Source: a virus
Taxonomy: Duplodnaviria; Heunggongvirae; Uroviricota; Caudoviricetes
Strand: one strand, 5' to 3'
IMG/VR virus record: IMGVR_UViG_2875703104_000005
DNA: 42,114 nt
The notes beneath the pieces were generated by a model, which searched no databases, had not been told where the DNA came from, and saw only the letters and a program-made list of their open reading frames with translations. Made by a program: the position numbers and the translations under genes. Below are positions 5,007 to 36,320 of this stretch, piece by piece; positions within the stretch are counted from its first letter, which is position 1; each line of letters starts with the position of its first letter.

Positions 5007-5086
5007 AACTTGTTACCTCGGTCTGTTACCGTTGAGGTAATAATTATGCGTATTTGGTTTGATGTCAATAGATATGAGTTAAAAAA

Positions 5087-5159: not shown

Positions 5160-5744
5160 TTATTGTTTGTTTTTTTCGTTCTGGTTGATGACAAATTCAA
5201 TGTAACTTTCGATCTTTGCTTTCTCGGTTTCGGGTAACAATGCGTAGCGCGAGCGGTCATAGTTGATGGTCGCAGGGTCGTGCGGGTGAATCAGTAATTC
5301 ATAGCCGTGACGCCCGAATGCTGATGCAACATTCTCCAGGGTGGAAATGGAAACACTGACCTCATTGTTTAACAGGCGGCTGATTGTCACCTGGGCGACG
5401 CCGGATGCGCGGTGAAGTTTTCCCTGAGTTGAAAGGTCGCGGCTTTCGCTCATCCAGCGTTCCAGGTTGTGAGCCGCCAGCTGACCAATGTCGCTTGGGC
5501 CGACAGGCTGAAAACCTTCCTGAGAAAGCGAGCGATCGATATCAAGCCAGTTACGTGGTTTATTGGCGGCAGCTTCAATTTTTCGCGCAACCTGGTCGCC
5601 GATAACCTTCTTGCCAAGAGCCCAGCGGTTTACCAGATTTGCCTGAGTTCCAAGTTTTTCTGCCATCCGCGTCTGAACACCATTGAATTCACGGTCGATC
5701 AAGTCGTTGAGATTTTGCCTGCGGACGTCCTGGATACTTTTCAT
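5160..5744 (-). CDS. CI-like repressor with two HTH domains, no S24 peptidase domain
   Basis: 194 aa; two XRE-type HTH segments (AEKLGTQANLVNRWALGKK and ASGVAQVTISRLLNNEVSVSISTLENVA); no Ala-Gly/Ser-Lys autocleavage module. Divergent from the Cro-like gene across a three-site operator region. Confidence 0.6.
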   Translation of the reverse strand: MKSIQDVRRQNLNDLIDREFNGVQTRMAEKLGTQANLVNRWALGKKVIGDQVARKIEAAANKPRNWLDIDRSLSQEGFQPVGPSDIGQLAAHNLERWMSESRDLSTQGKLHRASGVAQVTISRLLNNEVSVSISTLENVASAFGRHGYELLIHPHDPATINYDRSRYALLPETEKAKIESYIEFVINQNEKNKQ

Positions 5745-8147: not shown

Positions 8148-8164
8148 ATTACCTCAGGGGTAAA
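8148..8164. promoter_or_regulatory. Operator-like palindrome ATTACC-TCAGG-GGTAAA overlapping an RBS
   Basis: Ends 3 bp before the ATG of the 8167 gene and overlaps its Shine-Dalgarno. Confidence 0.45.
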
Positions 8165-15416: not shown

Positions 15417-15493
15417 TGGCGTGGCATGCAGGATTCGAACCTGCGACCAACCGCTTAGAAGGCGGTTGCTCTGTCCAACTGAGCTAATGCCAC
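15417..15493 (-). tRNA. tRNA-Arg (anticodon UCU), phage-borne
   Basis: 77-nt cloverleaf read directly: acceptor GTGGCAT/ATGCCAC, D-arm GCTC AGTTGGACA GAGC, anticodon loop CTTCTAA, T-arm GCAGG TTCGAAT CCTGC, discriminator G, CCA. Closely resembles enterobacterial argU-type tRNA. Confidence 0.8.
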
Positions 15494-31265: not shown

Positions 31266-32114
31266 ATGAAAAAAATAAATTTGTTTGGCATTGTGCTTTC
31301 AATAGTCGCTGTAAATCCTACAGCCGCCAGTTCATTGCAATGCAATAAGGATAACTTTGATGCATGCAAAACGTGTGAACAATTATCAAAGGCTATCGAC
31401 TTAAAAGAACCTAATCGCGGCGATTACTATAGAGGGGCTTTATGGAATGGGCTTTACGTCTCCTATGTAATTAATTGCCCTGTGGTTGCTGAGAAGTTAT
31501 TGAGCCATGGTGCTATACCATCATATGGCGGATATATGGGGTCTATGGGGGCGGTTCTGACAGGGAAATGGCCTCATAACAATGAATCAATAAATCTTTC
31601 ATGGGCAGATTTGCTTATAAAACATGGGTTTGATGTTAATAAGCATACTGGGCATTATAAATCAGCTACTGAGGTATGGGCTATAGATAAAAAACAGATT
31701 GAATATAAGTCAGTGTTTGACAAGTTAATTCAATCCAGCGAAGTAAAACCACTCGATCCTTCAAGAAATTTAGAATGGTGTGCGTCTGAAGGGTATCGCT
31801 CAGTTGTCGTTTATTCCCTTAACTCATGTATAGAAAATGCTATAAAACGTTTAGATGACGGTGTTTCTTCAGCGTCTGATATTTCATCCGCAGCCGTAAA
31901 TTCATGTACTAGCGATGTAGAAAATTTCAATAAGCATTTGTCATGCAAATCAGCTGTTAAAGAAAATTCTGATAAAGAGAAAAGAAACGTTTATCAGTTA
32001 TTAACCAGTGATAGTCAAATGAATAAAAATGTTATGGATATGCTGAAGGAAAGAAATATTGAAACGGTTCTTGAATTCAGAGCTGAAAATCGTGCAATGA
32101 AAACTTCACAATAA
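31266..32114 (+). CDS. Secreted protein of unknown function (low-GC moron)
   Basis: 282 aa; N-terminal signal peptide (MKKINLFGIVLSIVAVNPTAASS), several Cys, possible ankyrin-like repeats; markedly AT-rich compared with flanking genes. Confidence 0.5.
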   Translation: MKKINLFGIVLSIVAVNPTAASSLQCNKDNFDACKTCEQLSKAIDLKEPNRGDYYRGALWNGLYVSYVINCPVVAEKLLSHGAIPSYGGYMGSMGAVLTGKWPHNNESINLSWADLLIKHGFDVNKHTGHYKSATEVWAIDKKQIEYKSVFDKLIQSSEVKPLDPSRNLEWCASEGYRSVVVYSLNSCIENAIKRLDDGVSSASDISSAAVNSCTSDVENFNKHLSCKSAVKENSDKEKRNVYQLLTSDSQMNKNVMDMLKERNIETVLEFRAENRAMKTSQ

Positions 32115-32191: not shown

Positions 32192-32488
32192 ATGGATATT
32201 AAAGAGTTTAGTGAGTTAGAGAGACGCTATGAGCAAGCTAAAACGAACCGAGCTATAGGGGCATTTATTGGCGGCGGTGGGGTATTTGCTCTGTTAGCCG
32301 ATTTTTTATGGGATGTTGCGAACCCAATATCAATAGGGGTATTAATAGGCGGCGGACTTGTTTTTTTTGCTGTATGCCACGAACAGGTTCGAAGTTCATT
32401 AAGAAAGTTGGATGAAGAATGTTATTTGAAGTATGGCAAGTCTTACTCTCAATCATTCCATGAAATTTTTAAAGACAAATATAATTAG
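32192..32488 (+). CDS. Small two-transmembrane protein (low-GC moron)
   Basis: 98 aa; two Gly-rich hydrophobic helices (AIGAFIGGGGVFALL; ISIGVLIGGGLVFFAV); GAGGTG RBS; AT-rich. Confidence 0.5.
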   Translation: MDIKEFSELERRYEQAKTNRAIGAFIGGGGVFALLADFLWDVANPISIGVLIGGGLVFFAVCHEQVRSSLRKLDEECYLKYGKSYSQSFHEIFKDKYN

Positions 32489-32836
32489 TTAGTGGCGGGA
32501 GAAATAGTACACACGGAAATAAGTTACCGTCATAATCAACCGTGTCGATATCGATACGGTTGATGTTTCAATACTTTCGCGGATTACAGGGCAGACTTTG
32601 TTTGGCTGAATGCTTGAAAGCCAAGCCGCAAACTTACGAAAGGCAAGGCATATCATTAACTGTTTACCGCCAGCAGAAGGTATTTCGATTTCCGAAATAC
32701 CTTTGACAAATCTCTGTTTTAATTTAACAAATTGAGCAGCCCAAACCATACCCATGCCTTCAACGATAGGTTTCATTGGGGTGTACGGTTCGCCGTTGTG
32801 ATTGACGACATAAAGCTCTGCGCCGTGTAATGGCAC
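32489..32836 (-). pseudogene. Probable truncated remnant of a phage regulatory / anti-repressor-like gene
   Basis: 115-aa ORF whose N-terminal two thirds look like a conserved phage domain and whose C-terminus is low-complexity; abuts the moron and the inverted-repeat leader. Confidence 0.3.
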
Positions 32837-32983
32837 GTTGATAGTAGTGACAAATTTGAAACATCGCTGGTTGTAAGCCAGCAGATGCTCGTTATTTTAC
32901 GTCGCGGCACAATTTCTCGCTGCTGGCTCTTTTACACACATTAACCAAATATGGTTGATTTTAATGTTTGTCTGTGTCTATCA

Positions 32984-33000
32984 TTACCTTTGCGGTAAAT
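32984..33000. promoter_or_regulatory. Operator-like palindrome ATTACC-TTTGC-GGTAAA at the start of the left anti-repressor leader
   Basis: Marks the start of the inverted-repeat leader that precedes the Bro-N anti-repressor gene. Confidence 0.5.
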
Positions 33001-33090
33001 TTACACCGCACTCCTCTTGTGCCATAGTAATCGGGCACTGGCAAAATCCAGTGCCGGGATTGGCGTCCCGGATTACTAAAAGGCGCATTC

Positions 33091-33110
33091 ACCGCGCAAG
33101 CGGTTTTTTT
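33091..33110 (+). terminator. Leader terminator / attenuator upstream of the Bro-N anti-repressor
   Basis: Stem ACCGC/GCGGT with GCAA loop and a 7-T run, about 100 nt downstream of the operator-like site. Confidence 0.5.
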
Positions 33111-33267
33111 ATGCGTATAGCACGGCCACATTCGTATTATGGTGGGCTGTGTGGGGGCACCGAAAGGTGCGCCGGGTCCTTTTAGCCGGTTACGCCAACC
33201 CTGCACAGTTCACCACCAACCGATTGGCGTCGGTAGTGGTGATTAACCAGACTAAAAGGTAACCACT

Positions 33268-33963
33268 ATGACAGCTACAAAAAGCACGTCCATTTTTTCT
33301 TTCGAATCTCAAGCCGATATACGGGTAATCGTCATTAATGGTGAGCCATGGTTTATCGCTTCAGATGTTTGTCGGGCTATAGGCATAGCAAACCATCGAG
33401 ATGCTGTTCGAAAACTTGATGATGATGAGAAGGGCGTCGCTTCAACCGACACCCCTGGCGGTGAGCAAGAATCGATCATTATCTCCGAGTCAGGCCTCTA
33501 CACACTGATCCTCCGCTGCCGCGATGCGGTGACACCAGGCACTATCCCATACCGCTTTCGTAAATGGGTTACAGGTGAGGTTCTTCCTCAGATCCGCCGC
33601 ACCGGAAGTTACATTAAAAACTCGCTCCCGCAGGAAGAACGCATAAAGATGGTTGCCGACCAGGTAGCCAACGCCACGGCGTCAGCAGTAATGCAGGCGA
33701 TGAAGATAGAGAACAAAACCTACAGTGCCCCGCTGAAGCCCGGCTACCGCAGCCTGATTCATTCGCCGTCGGGTGTTCTCGGCCTGACGGAGAACTCACT
33801 GCTGATGAATCTGCTGAACCAGTTACAGGAAGACGGGCACGACGTATCGGGCGCGGCGGCGGAACTGACCACCATGTTCTGCTACATCGTCGGTGTGAGC
33901 AAATGCCTGCGTGATATCCAGACGCACGCGGAGTACATCAACGACAAGGCAGGGTTCTTCTGA
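33268..33963 (+). CDS. Anti-repressor, Bro-N N-terminal domain with shared C-terminal domain
   Basis: 231 aa; Bro-N pattern (IRVIVINGEPWFIASDVCRAIG ... ESGLYTLILRCR); C-terminal 80 aa identical to the C-terminus of the 35074-35730 product. Confidence 0.7.
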   Translation: MTATKSTSIFSFESQADIRVIVINGEPWFIASDVCRAIGIANHRDAVRKLDDDEKGVASTDTPGGEQESIIISESGLYTLILRCRDAVTPGTIPYRFRKWVTGEVLPQIRRTGSYIKNSLPQEERIKMVADQVANATASAVMQAMKIENKTYSAPLKPGYRSLIHSPSGVLGLTENSLLMNLLNQLQEDGHDVSGAAAELTTMFCYIVGVSKCLRDIQTHAEYINDKAGFF

Positions 33964-33990
33964 CGGGCGGCGGCACAGGGATGTGCCTTT
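33721..33990. repeat. Inverted repeat, anti-repressor C-terminal domain, left arm (partner 35048-35316)
   Basis: About 240 bp coding the shared 80-aa domain plus about 25 bp of 3' flank; only about two mismatches seen. Confidence 0.8.
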
Positions 33991-34034
33991 AAATAATTCT
34001 GTACAGATTGCAGACTGGGGGTGAATAGCGTACT

Positions 34035-34051
34035 ATTACCTCAAGGGTAAG
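34035..34051. promoter_or_regulatory. Operator-like palindrome ATTACC-TCAAG-GGTAAG upstream of the moron
   Basis: 59 bp upstream of the ATG at 34110. Confidence 0.45.
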
Positions 34052-34109
34052 AAAGCATTTTTAATCTTCCCTTCAAAACGCGTCCTGTAGCCAAACATGG
34101 GAGGACGAA

Positions 34110-34742
34110 ATGAGAACAAATACAACAAGAAAAGCGATGCCATACATTATCCCAGAAGCAGATTTCGATAGAAAACTGAACATGTCTGAGAAGAACACTA
34201 GTCACACCGAAAGCTACTTAGCGAAAGGTGTGGTTGATTTCGTTCTTCCGGGATTCACAACACCTTATGGTTATCGCCTTGTAAAATCTTGTAATGGCGA
34301 TCATTACAGAATGATTACTACCAGCGATACTCCAGAAACGGTGTATGCGGTTAAGTTAATCTTTCGGGAAGATATCGTCGAAGCCAAAAGAACATGTACG
34401 CAGATCATGGTATGGCGTACGCCTAATGTTATTCATGACCGTGCTGTTCATGGTTTGCCTCAGATTTTTTTTCAGTTCTTCCTAGAGCAATATGCGATCG
34501 TTGTATCTGATGAGCAACAAACAATCGATGGGAGAAGATTCTGGGAAAGAATGATTTCTTGGGCTATAAACACCCCAGGATATAATGTATACGTTTCAGA
34601 TGGCTCTGAAGAAGATAGACCTCTTAGCTTCATGACATCATGGGATGATTTCTATAGCCAGTGGGCTGATTTCTGTTGGGGCAGTGATAAAGATGTGCAT
34701 ACCCACAGACTACTGGTTATAAGCAAAGATAAACTGCATTAA
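34110..34742 (+). CDS. Hypothetical moron protein with its own operator-like site and terminator
   Basis: 210 aa; GGAGG RBS; operator-like palindrome 59 bp upstream; strong terminator immediately downstream; lower GC than the core genome. Confidence 0.5.
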   Translation: MRTNTTRKAMPYIIPEADFDRKLNMSEKNTSHTESYLAKGVVDFVLPGFTTPYGYRLVKSCNGDHYRMITTSDTPETVYAVKLIFREDIVEAKRTCTQIMVWRTPNVIHDRAVHGLPQIFFQFFLEQYAIVVSDEQQTIDGRRFWERMISWAINTPGYNVYVSDGSEEDRPLSFMTSWDDFYSQWADFCWGSDKDVHTHRLLVISKDKLH

Positions 34743-34745
34743 TAG

Positions 34746-34770
34746 AAGCCCGCAGCGCGGGCTTTTTTGT
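34746..34770 (+). terminator. Intrinsic terminator after the moron
   Basis: 8-bp stem AAGCCCGC/GCGGGCTT, loop AGC, then TTTTTT. Confidence 0.7.
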
Positions 34771-34840
34771 GGACGAAACAAAAGTCAGTGCTACACTCAT
34801 TGACGCCACATTGAGGTGGCTTATAGATGGAAATTTCACA

Positions 34841-35002
34841 ATGAAAAAAGCATTTGCTGCACTGTTCGTTTTGTTGTCTCTGGTAGCTTCAACTCAGGCC
34901 TTTGCCGGTCGTTGTCAGCACGACAGCGATACTGCCGCTGACGGCTCCCGCTGCGGTGGGCGTTCTGCGGATTCCCGCCCAGGCGGCGGTGGCATTCGTT
35001 AA
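34841..35002 (+). CDS. Small secreted Gly/Arg/Cys-rich peptide (53 aa)
   Basis: Signal-peptide-like N-terminus MKKAFAALFVLLSLVASTQAFA; weak RBS, so tentative. Confidence 0.3.
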   Translation: MKKAFAALFVLLSLVASTQAFAGRCQHDSDTAADGSRCGGRSADSRPGGGGIR

Positions 35003-35024
35003 AAACAAGGCCGCGAAAGCGGCC
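35001..35024 (-). terminator. Intrinsic terminator after the AntA-type gene
   Basis: Stem GGCCGC/GCGGCC, loop GAAA, then TTGTTTTT on the minus strand. Confidence 0.55.
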
Positions 35025-35038
35025 TGTGACATGTCACG
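35025..35038. repeat. 14-mer TGTGACATGTCACG, copy 3
   Basis: Immediately 3' (plus strand) of the hairpin that terminates the AntA-type gene. Confidence 0.6.
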
Positions 35039-35047
35039 ATAGTTTCG

Positions 35048-35316
35048 TTTTGCACGTCCCTGTGCCGCCGCCGTCAGAAGAACCCTGCCTTGTCGTTGAT
35101 GTACTCCGCGTGGGTCTGGATATCACGCAGGCATTTGCTCACACCGACGATGTAGCAGAACATGGTGGTCAGCTCCGCCGCCGCGCCCGATACGTCGTGC
35201 CCGTCTTCCTGTAACTGGTTCAGCAGATTCATCAGCAGTGAGTTCTCCGTCAGGCCGAGAACACCCGACGGCGAGTGAATCAGACTGCGGTAGCCGGGCT
35301 TCAGTGGGGCACTGTA
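35048..35316. repeat. Inverted repeat, anti-repressor C-terminal domain, right arm
   Basis: Reverse complement of 33721-33990 with about two mismatches. Confidence 0.8.
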
Positions 35317-35730
35317 TTCTTTTTTGTCTTCCAGCTTGATCGCCTCCATAATGGCGGGCATGAAGCCTGACAAGACCTTCTCCACCTTTGTTTCTTGTTG
35401 TCTTAAACGTTTCTCGCATTCAATGAAGTATCGGCGTATCTGGCGGCCTTTTTCGTTGCGCTCGACCATCGCAGTTTCTTTGGCCGTATCGAGGGTGAGG
35501 TGATAGTCTTTGCTACGGCGATCGCCTCCTCGACCTTTGATTTCCCGATTTGGGGAAACCAAAATATAGTCCTGATTTTCAACGAAACCATATTCAGCAA
35601 TGCGTTCTGTAATCCACGATGCAAAGCGTTTACCTACCCCAAGAAAAGTATGTAAATCGCGAGCATTAACGAGAAGAGTGGTTTCGTTGGCGATAGTGCC
35701 GTTGAATACGGGGATGAGTTGAGCGTTCAT
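35074..35730 (-). CDS. Anti-repressor, AntA-type N-terminal domain with shared C-terminal domain
   Basis: 218 aa; AntA-like N-terminus (LIPVFNGTIANETTLLVNARDLHTFLGVGKRFASWI); C-terminal 80 aa identical to the Bro-N paralog; GGAG RBS. Confidence 0.7.
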   Translation of the reverse strand: MNAQLIPVFNGTIANETTLLVNARDLHTFLGVGKRFASWITERIAEYGFVENQDYILVSPNREIKGRGGDRRSKDYHLTLDTAKETAMVERNEKGRQIRRYFIECEKRLRQQETKVEKVLSGFMPAIMEAIKLEDKKEYSAPLKPGYRSLIHSPSGVLGLTENSLLMNLLNQLQEDGHDVSGAAAELTTMFCYIVGVSKCLRDIQTHAEYINDKAGFF

Positions 35731-35888
35731 GATGGCGTCTCCACTTAGCGAATTACATCACCACCGCTGAGACCAATCAGATGGTGGTGAACTGAACGGA
35801 GTTGGTCTTACCGGCCTAAGTGGTACCGGCGTCCTTTCGGACCCCCATTCAGCCCACCATAATTCTGGCATGACTGTGCTATACGCAT

Positions 35889-35910
35889 AAAAAAACCACG
35901 TCTGGCGTGG
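35889..35910 (-). terminator. Leader terminator / attenuator upstream of the AntA-type anti-repressor
   Basis: Stem CCACG/CGTGG with a 7-T run at the equivalent leader position; stem sequence differs from the left arm but pairing is preserved. Confidence 0.5.
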
Positions 35911-36000
35911 TATGCGCCACTTAGTAATCCGGGAGACCAATCCCGGCACTGGATTTTGCCAGTGCCCGATTACTATGGCACAAGAGGAGTGCGGTGTAAA

Positions 36001-36017
36001 TTTACCGCAAAGGTAAA
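36001..36017. promoter_or_regulatory. Operator-like palindrome TTTACC-GCAAA-GGTAAA at the start of the right anti-repressor leader
   Basis: Mirror copy of the 32984-33000 site, in the right-arm leader driving the minus-strand AntA-type gene. Confidence 0.5.
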
Positions 36018-36047
36018 TATAAGCACTCCACTTGGTAATTACAAACC

Positions 36048-36320
36048 TTATCTGGTTTGTTTTCGTAATTGTTCGGCACAATAGTCGAGATGTGTTTGCA
36101 GATCCCGCATAGACATCTGTGAGCTGGTGACGTAGTTAATCAGTGCAGTCAGTTCGGCAAGTGGACCATCGACATTAAATCCATCCTTATCGAGATCCCG
36201 GAGTAATTTCATCAAGTGCGATCCCTCCACCAGTGACCTGACGCCTCCCGGCGTGTGAATCCTTTCGGTAAATCCCTCTTCCAGTGGATAGTGATACTGC
36301 TGCATCTTAATCTTCTCCAT
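36048..36320 (-). CDS. Small anti-repressor-like protein behind a LexA box
   Basis: 90 aa; homologous to the shared C-terminal domain of the two large anti-repressors (PL--G----IH-P-GV ... ELT ... RD-QTH--Y spacing conserved); consensus LexA box 8 bp upstream of its ATG. Confidence 0.6.
   Translation of the reverse strand: MEKIKMQQYHYPLEEGFTERIHTPGGVRSLVEGSHLMKLLRDLDKDGFNVDGPLAELTALINYVTSSQMSMRDLQTHLDYCAEQLRKQTR

Follow-up and report, generated by a model that had tools for sequence, protein, structure and literature searches.

A probable repressor-gated cargo slot between convergent antirepressor operons of a Uetakevirus-type Escherichia coli prophage and its 210-residue cargo with a predicted GNAT-like fold

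Introduction

Lambdoid and P22-like phages carry so-called morons, accessory genes that stand singly between conserved genes and have a promoter and a terminator of their own, as in the sieA/immI region that precedes the tailspike gene of P22. This paper concerns a gene for a protein of 210 amino acids (aa) at positions 34110-34742 of the IMG/VR virus record IMGVR_UViG_2875703104_000005, a 42,114-nucleotide (nt) stretch of Caudoviricetes DNA, called the window below. The N-terminal part of its tailspike, the region of the antirepressors and the best matches at the DNA level place the window, a temperate E. coli podovirus prophage, in the phiV10/TL-2011b/phiv142-3 group, genus Uetakevirus. The gene was found to occupy a slot with exchangeable cargo between two antirepressor genes, and its promoter overlaps a palindrome that is probably the operator of the main prophage repressor. 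A first-pass annotation, made from the sequence alone, had described it as a stand-alone moron with an operator-like site and a terminator of its own.

The cassette resembles known morons in being a single gene with a promoter-like element, a strong terminator and deviant guanine-plus-cytosine (GC) content, present or absent among near-identical phages. Its relatives also lie in classic moron positions, such as between the lysis genes and the terminase or between tail genes. Unlike in morons, the promoter and the terminator belong here to a reusable slot and not to the gene. Furthermore, the promoter carries a putative prophage-repressor operator, which predicts silence in the lysogen, whereas the textbook moron is expressed from the prophage.

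In phage P1, operators controlled by C1 are scattered over the genome, and immunity I is encoded by the c4-icd-ant operon. The window is similar to P1 in that one repressor appears to serve many operators genome-wide, including those of antirepressor operons, and in that C4 antisense RNA genes precede the ant genes. The P1 operator is an asymmetric 17-mer, whereas the one found here is the symmetric TTACC-N5-GGTAA. The repressor is also different: it is an HTH_3 protein that phiV10 and ZX5 share in identical form. The immunity module, in addition, occurs twice, the copies being convergent.

Translation of the mom gene of phage Mu is gated by a hairpin over the start site. Mom is a GNAT-fold, tRNA-dependent DNA adenine hypermodification enzyme (PMC13219725). 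Like the protein considered here, it is a phage accessory protein with this fold (about 230 aa), encoded by a terminal and tightly controlled gene, and the gating of its translation is analogous to the paired Shine-Dalgarno (SD) sequence predicted for the leader of the 210-aa gene. Mom was rejected as a relative, an hhalign comparison with the family profile giving a probability of 0.1% and E = 0.47; it is the best functional analogue among the phage GNAT-fold accessory proteins. The type II GNAT toxins TacT, AtaT and KacT were also set aside, as the 210-aa gene has neither an adjacent antitoxin nor membership of an Acetyltransf family.

The slot and its exchangeable cargos

The gene and its control elements are arranged as follows.

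34008-34036, plus strand: predicted sigma-70 promoter of the slot, read from the sequence (-35 element TTGCAG at 34008-34013, 17-nt spacer, -10 element TACTAT at 34031-34036)
34036-34050, no strand: putative slot operator TTACCTCAAGGGTAA, a TTACC-N5-GGTAA palindrome 59 nt before the ATG that shares its first T with the end of the -10 hexamer
34051-34109, plus strand: cargo-specific 5' leader with the SD sequence GGAGG at 34100-34104, 5 nt before the ATG; homologous to the leader in phage LLS
34110-34742, plus strand: gene of the 210-aa protein, a full-length match (E = 3e-113) to PHROG 1349, a family without an assigned function; predicted divergent GNAT-like fold
34745-34768, plus strand: intrinsic terminator with a hairpin at 34745-34765 (9-pair stem, 3-nt loop) and six U, part of the conserved right flank

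The open reading frame (ORF) with its GGAGG ribosome-binding site, the palindrome 59 nt upstream and the strong terminator directly downstream are thus all present as first described, the stem having nine pairs (eight Watson-Crick and one G-U) instead of eight. The description of the operator-like site and the terminator as the gene's own did not hold. Six prophages with different genes at this position were aligned. Their cargos are the 210-aa gene, a 59-aa ORF with a YafO-family toxin gene, a DUF4760 gene, a 108-aa ORF with a DUF2335 gene and two sets of small ORFs. All six have in common the ant 3' end, a short hairpin, the TTGCAG element, the -10 element and the operator. On the left side, similarity between cargos breaks directly after GGTAA; on the right side, similarity with the prophages carrying other cargos resumes at position 34746 of the window (query position 797) and extends through a 53-aa ORF and the terminator of ant2. 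Since promoter, operator, terminator and the small peptide gene are common to different cargos, they are fixtures of the slot and not of the 210-aa gene, and the cargo proper can be delimited by this alignment to 34051-34745.

The slot consists of a promoter with an operator-fused -10 element, a variable cargo, a strong terminator and a small signal-peptide gene, and lies between convergent antirepressor operons. At least six different cargos occupy it. Among 5,426 complete E. coli genomes, 532 have parts of the slot and 92 have the 210-aa cargo in it; many complete chromosomes carry the exact 1.1-kb region, where the gene is annotated just as 'hypothetical protein'. The GC content of the cargo is 41%, against 48% in the window and 51-53% in the flanking ant genes, and the cargo is present or absent among otherwise near-identical prophages. 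The duplicated 3' ends of the ant genes would be obvious homology arms for the exchange of cargos between phages. Comparison of the alternative cargos with the PADLOC defence models gave no consistent match, with isolated weak hits at most.

The predicted slot promoter is kept in TL-2011b, phiv142-3 and ExPEC XM and occurs in a variant form in EC.W1-9 and F41.

The operator family and the main repressor

With up to one mismatch allowed, TTACC-N5-GGTAA occurs 14 times in the 42-kb window (11 sites are exact), against 0.50 sites expected, and none of 100 shuffled sequences reached 14. The other 13 sites are at 5026, 5088, 5800, 5848, 6185, 8087, 8149, 12652, 15816, 32984, 36002, 36383 and 36615. 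Sites precede the early units, replication-side genes (8087 and 8149), the small terminase subunit gene, the tailspike gene, both ant operons and the 210-aa gene. In at least seven promoters, the first T of TTACC doubles as the final T of a -10-like hexamer: TATCAT at ant1, TATATT at ant2, TTTAAT at 8149 and TACTAT at the slot, with fusions of this kind also at 5026 and 12652.

The presumed binder of these sites is the product of the following gene.

5163-5744, minus strand: main repressor gene (HTH_3 by Pfam), flanked at its divergent early promoters by the operator pairs 5026/5088 and 5800/5848

The repressor is 100% identical to those of phiV10, phiv142-3, EC.W1-9 and vB_EcoP_ZX5. Overexpression of the ZX5 repressor abolished free phage, lowered the endolysin and holin transcripts by more than 99.9% and blocked lytic transcription (PMC9782041). 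That study validated the function of the repressor without mapping its operators (PMC9782041). Relatives sharing the identical repressor have three to four operator sites per 8-kb locus, and phage LLS, with an unrelated repressor, has just one exact site in 43 kb. A literature search on the PHROG identifier and on operators in the Uetakevirus-type phage group returned nothing specific.

The palindrome is over-represented, flanks the repressor gene and overlaps core promoters. We infer that it is the operator of the main repressor, which when bound would occlude the promoter. Because the slot operator overlaps the -10/+1 region, the simplest expectation is that the gene is silent in the lysogen and expressed when the repressor is absent. 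The 13 other sites before early, replication, terminase, antirepressor and tailspike units suggest that late and accessory promoters are also silenced directly by the repressor, as by C1 in P1. The first-pass annotation had taken the gene for an autonomous transcription unit; its palindrome belongs instead to the putative regulon of the main repressor, and the gene is probably repressor-gated.

The leader and the terminator

Folding of the leader (34051-34115) gave -15.3 kcal/mol and z = -1.75, with both the SD sequence and the AUG paired in the predicted structure. In the minimum-energy folds of all 11 family leaders considered (the window and ten others), the SD sequence pairs with an upstream pyrimidine stretch, CUCC or GUCC; homologue leaders of this kind include those of loci L004 (5925-6006), L037 (4225-4303) and L042 (1665-1743). 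Several homologue leaders also have a hairpin resembling a terminator, placed after the promoter and before the SD sequence. Attenuation or translational damping by the leader may be treated as a lead and not as a finding. The nearby C4 and isrK RNAs were considered as partners of the leader and rejected, the duplex energies being no better than those of shuffled controls (z = +0.5 to +1.0).

The 48-nt segment with the terminator folds at -17 kcal/mol (z = -3.6), and none of 200 shuffled sequences was as stable. The consensus terminator scanner did not list it.

The 210-aa protein

Pfam, NCBIfam and PADLOC scans of the protein gave no match, including none among the defence models of PADLOC-DB v2. 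Its close homologues form 63 clusters, nearly all of about 210 aa, with source names solely from Enterobacterales and the labels 'phage protein' or 'hypothetical'. An exhaustive profile search widened the family to 892 representatives (50% identity), of which 261 scored below 1e-10. Comparison with a homologue of 83% identity revealed strong purifying selection, with 0.12 nonsynonymous substitutions (dN) and 1.7 synonymous substitutions (dS) per site and dN/dS = 0.07. The conserved motifs of the family are TQ(I/V)xVWR, [ST]D..Q[ST]..G..FW, VYxSDG and WG...H.HR. Among 110 diverse relatives, no consistent family was found by Pfam and only isolated weak matches, one member each, by PADLOC. Searches of the PDB sequences with two family profiles returned nothing meaningful.

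An AlphaFold2 model built from 38 sequences reached a predicted local distance difference test score (pLDDT) of 81 and a predicted template-modelling score (pTM) of 0.78. It shows an alpha/beta fold with the beta4-alpha3-beta5 core of the GNAT superfamily. Foldseek matches of this model in the PDB are weak and exclusively to GNAT proteins, with a probability of up to 0.98; the best are the acetyl-CoA-binding domain of ICL2/Rv1916 (8g8k), NatD, Hat1, AAC(2')-Ia and EctA. In the viral structure library BFVD, uncharacterised phage proteins some 190 aa long come first (E = 1e-9 to 1e-10), including one of Agrobacterium phage Atu_ph07; next come proteins that bear the name 'NAT_SF' or 'Acyl-CoA N-acyltransferase'.

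The protein differs from the GNAT superfamily in having two extra helices (107-128) before the beta4-like strand and extra N-terminal strands, and in matching neither a Pfam acetyltransferase profile nor the motif A consensus Q/R-x-x-G-x-G/A. The position of motif A reads S133-D-E-Q-Q-T-I-D-G-R-R-F-W145, with the family-wide form [ST]D..Q[ST]..G..FW. In the model, this segment sits at the strand-to-helix turn (beta4-alpha3) where GNAT proteins hold the pyrophosphate of CoA. The fold matches are to GNAT proteins only, and the canonical motif and the Pfam match are missing; the protein is for this reason called a predicted divergent GNAT-like fold of hypothetical catalytic competence. The statement that no catalytic motif is recognisable is therefore correct at the level of sequence and does not extend to the predicted fold.

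Relatives and mobility

In its relatives, the gene is solitary and occupies accessory positions. It lies between the tail chaperone and tape measure genes, adjoining P22-type ant and arc, in Serratia siphovirus-type prophages; on the opposite strand between the baseplate genes and sit in P1-like Citrobacter plasmids; between the lysis genes and the terminase in Enterobacter lambdoid prophages and phage LLS; and after the tail-fibre genes, near toxin-antitoxin modules and the integrase, in metagenomic prophages. Distant homologues stand beside BrnT/A and PemK/MazE modules at prophage ends. An apparently non-temperate phage has a relative with a paralogue-sized neighbour in a region of small early-looking genes. 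In a distant branch, two paralogues are found in tandem, 15 nt apart (L073, 851-2148; L074, 4186-5480; hhalign probability 99.5%, 30% identity), the second copy being devoid of the Cys of the CTQ motif. Rare fusions join the protein to an MqsA antitoxin zinc-ribbon N-terminal domain (E = 3e-20), to DUF5397 or, by a weak match, to an SRA-like domain (proteins P0152, P0146 and P0135).

The lambdoid copies of LLS and Enterobacter keep GTACTAT-TTACC-N5-GGTAA upstream of the gene; in lambdoid phages with an unrelated repressor (phage LLS, L075, 42046-42067; L067, 4914), the half-sites are identical to those of the window and the 5-nt spacer differs. Uetakevirus-like phages from other enterobacteria (L029, L034) have the LLS-type allele in their ant slot as well, so that a recent transfer of the whole unit explains the operator copy of LLS. 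The unit seems to have moved, with its -10 element and operator, from a Uetakevirus-like slot into lambdoid phages. The possibility that the LLS copy marks a factor other than the repressor was dropped without a conclusion, transfer being a sufficient explanation. The foreign operator could be a relic of the transfer, or it could allow a Uetakevirus-type prophage in the same cell to exert control in trans.

Outside any prophage, Xenorhabdus bovienii carries an orphan copy in its core chromosome, between ppc and metF (loci L070 and L071, 5001-5639). There are no phage genes within 5 kb, and the same arrangement was observed on three contigs. This copy shows that the protein can be useful, or at least tolerated, in a cell without a phage cycle. 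Overall, the cassette is of the moron type, as had been proposed: a single gene with a promoter-like element, a strong terminator, a GC content of 41% against 48% and variable presence among near-identical prophages, found in at least four other phage backgrounds.

Possible function of the gene

The explanation we tentatively prefer, while stopping short of calling it probable, is a repressor-gated accessory enzyme of the GNAT fold that is switched on at infection or induction and serves host takeover or counter-defence rather than abortive infection from the lysogen. In a stable lysogen, the repressor bound at 34036-34050 would hold the gene off. When the repressor is absent or inactivated, as in fresh infection or upon induction, the gene would be transcribed from the slot promoter alongside the antirepressors, possibly with additional read-through from ant1, the hairpin at 33972-33987 being a poor terminator. 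Transcription would end at 34768, and the SD-pairing leader may limit translation further. The GNAT-like pocket would then transfer or bind an acyl group, acting on a target of the host or of a competitor. The mode of regulation and the presence of relatives in phages that seem non-temperate speak somewhat for a role in the phage's own lytic phase.

Several observations weigh against this view. The slot promoter is weak by consensus (TTGCAG-17-TACTAT matches at 7 of 12 positions) and was missed by the consensus promoter scanner, and a single operator may give only partial repression. RNAalifold found no consensus SD hairpin, because the subfamilies use different pairing registers, and the individual z-scores are modest. 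The Foldseek TM-scores against the PDB are only 0.3-0.4. None of the 110 diverse relatives has a Pfam acetyltransferase match even at E <= 1, so that membership of the GNAT superfamily is argued from the fold; the canonical motif A is absent, the sequence at its place being SDEQQTIDGRRFW, and no register fits. Many homologues lie in prophage accessory regions by toxin-antitoxin modules, a placement equally typical of defence and counter-defence. Finally, the Xenorhabdus orphan persists outside any prophage and has no operator.

The last two points bear directly on the explanation given in the first-pass annotation, according to which the gene would be a defence or superinfection-exclusion gene expressed in the lysogen, through a leaky or second promoter. 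The hypervariable slot between conserved flanks resembles known prophage defence hotspots, one of its cargos is a YafO-family toxin, and the 210-aa gene itself is low in GC, solitary and mobile. The Xenorhabdus orphan has a TATAAT-like element in front of it, and the distant homologues near BrnT/A and PemK/MazE are at prophage ends. On the other hand, the putative operator of the main repressor covers part of the -10/+1 region, just 59 cargo-specific nt remain before the ATG with no promoter visible in them, and relatives are found in phages that look non-temperate. PADLOC gave no consistent match for the protein, its 110 relatives or the alternative cargos, and structural relatives belong to phages such as Atu_ph07; an abortive-infection or exclusion role is thus without direct support. 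We regard lysogenic defence as unlikely, though the hotspot-like variability of the slot, its YafO cargo and the orphan copy of Xenorhabdus leave it some weight.

The YafO toxin in the same slot of other prophages has also a different implication. The 210-aa protein may be its functional equivalent and arrest growth at induction in the manner of a GNAT toxin, shutting the host down by modification of an essential component, for example of aminoacyl-tRNA as by TacT and AtaT, and the tight limits apparently set on transcription by the operator and on translation by the paired SD sequence would suit such a product. No context examined has an antitoxin-like gene adjacent to it, the solitary Xenorhabdus copy with its constitutive-looking promoter argues against strong toxicity, and the protein lacks sequence similarity to acetyltransferase families; of the explanations considered, this is the one in which we place the least belief. 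A non-enzymatic GNAT-like binder, which would either inhibit a host protein or mimic its partner as a decoy, or else modulate the repressor/antirepressor switch around it, is only a little less doubtful. It would account for the missing canonical CoA-binding motif, for the mostly aromatic or hydrophobic character of the residues conserved in the wider family (Y79, W102, F144, W145 and I204) and for the position between two ant genes under the same operator. However, [ST]D..Q[ST]..G..FW (beta4-alpha3), TQ.xVWR and VYxSDG are conserved very widely and look like parts of an active site. Moreover, the cargo can be replaced by others and is found, too, in phages that have no ant genes nearby, and therefore does not belong to the switch as such.

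For PHROG 1349 as a whole, a broader proposal extends the preferred reading of a repressor-gated enzyme. The family may be an unrecognised branch of GNAT-like enzymes, deployed by many types of phages, in this prophage only once repression ends, for the chemical modification of a component of host immunity, a host macromolecule or a small-molecule signal. At present this is speculative and rather improbable, slightly more so than lysogenic defence.

The flanking genes

The neighbours of the cargo are the following.

33268-33963, plus strand: ant1, Bro-N-type antirepressor gene (Pfam Bro-N, E = 2.3e-21; PHROG 130 'anti-repressor Ant'), its 3' end forming the left inverted-repeat arm
33708-33986, no strand: left inverted-repeat arm, coding sequence of the ant C-terminal domain with a short hairpin at 33972-33987 (seen in the fold)
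34841-35002, plus strand: conserved 53-aa ORF starting MKKAFAALFVLLSLVASTQAFA, taken for a signal peptide cleaved at an AXA site (match to PHROG 14503 'membrane associated protein', E = 2e-40)
35008-35025, minus strand: terminator of the leftward ant2, by terminator scan and fold
35052-35329, no strand: right inverted-repeat arm, pairing with the left arm
35074-35730, minus strand: ant2, AntA-type antirepressor gene (Pfam AntA, E = 3.6e-27)
32955-33220, plus strand: leader of ant1, with an isrK-like RNA at 33035-33110 and a C4 antisense RNA at 33135-33220
35780-36044, minus strand: leader of ant2, with an isrK-like RNA at 35889-35965 and a C4 antisense RNA at 35780-35864

The 53-aa ORF, noted earlier as a possible secreted peptide, was confirmed with its predicted signal peptide and its PHROG 14503 match. 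It adjoins every type of cargo, and its protein cluster is named 'transmembrane anchored protein'. The mature part of the peptide is rich in Gly, Arg and Asp and has two Cys. An alternative GTG start at 34769 gives 77 aa (34769-35002, plus strand), and PHROG 3117 models this longer form. A promoter-like TTGACG-16-TATAGA lies downstream of the cargo terminator, at about 34793-34820, so the peptide gene may be a unit of its own.

The antirepressor inverted repeats said to bracket the cassette are also present. They pair 33966-33986 with 35052-35072 (21 nt, 95% identity) and 33708-33966 with 35071-35329 (259 nt, 96%), about 280 nt in total, and consist of the 3'-terminal parts of the antirepressor genes, which converge and differ in their N-terminal domains (Bro-N and AntA). 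Each ant gene is preceded by a leader similar to that of P1 immI, in which a promoter with operator is followed by an isrK-like RNA and then by a C4 antisense RNA. The two leaders are an inverted repeat of each other, with 76-87% identity. A mirror-image duplication of an immunity I module with differing antirepressor N-terminal domains is unusual. The shared ant C-terminal domain also exists as a free-standing 90-aa ORF (36051-36320, minus strand; PHROG 450, E = 3e-48), and a 115-aa ORF (32492-32836, minus strand) contains a P22_AR_N domain only; apparently the C-terminal module is reshuffled on its own.

Two further accessory genes, on the plus strand, come directly before the ant region. 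One (31266-32114) encodes 282 aa with an N-terminal signal-like sequence (PHROG 6118), the other (32192-32488) 98 aa with a glycine-rich hydrophobic stretch (PHROG 21905), and Pfam, NCBIfam and PADLOC gave zero matches for both products. A tRNA-Arg(TCT) gene is located within the prophage at 15417-15493 (minus strand), between the terminase and the portal-side genes.

Significance

The cassette itself is a normal kind of phage accessory element, and current ideas are not overturned; what emerges is a putative operator regulon, a cargo slot probably gated by the repressor and a predicted fold for the family. If the assignment of the operator is right, TTACC-N5-GGTAA and a regulon of 14 sites would be defined for the repressor of the phiV10/ZX5 type. 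About one in ten complete E. coli genomes has the recombination slot, which would then be a convenient place to seek new early effectors, and the 210-aa protein would give an entry point to a large unannotated family of phage proteins with a GNAT-like fold. If the broader proposal for PHROG 1349 is true, the antirepressor-flanked slot would be a docking site under repressor control where Uetakevirus-type phages swap early effectors. Silencing in trans of the operator-bearing lambdoid copies solely in the presence of a co-resident Uetakevirus-type prophage would amount to regulatory cross-talk between prophages.

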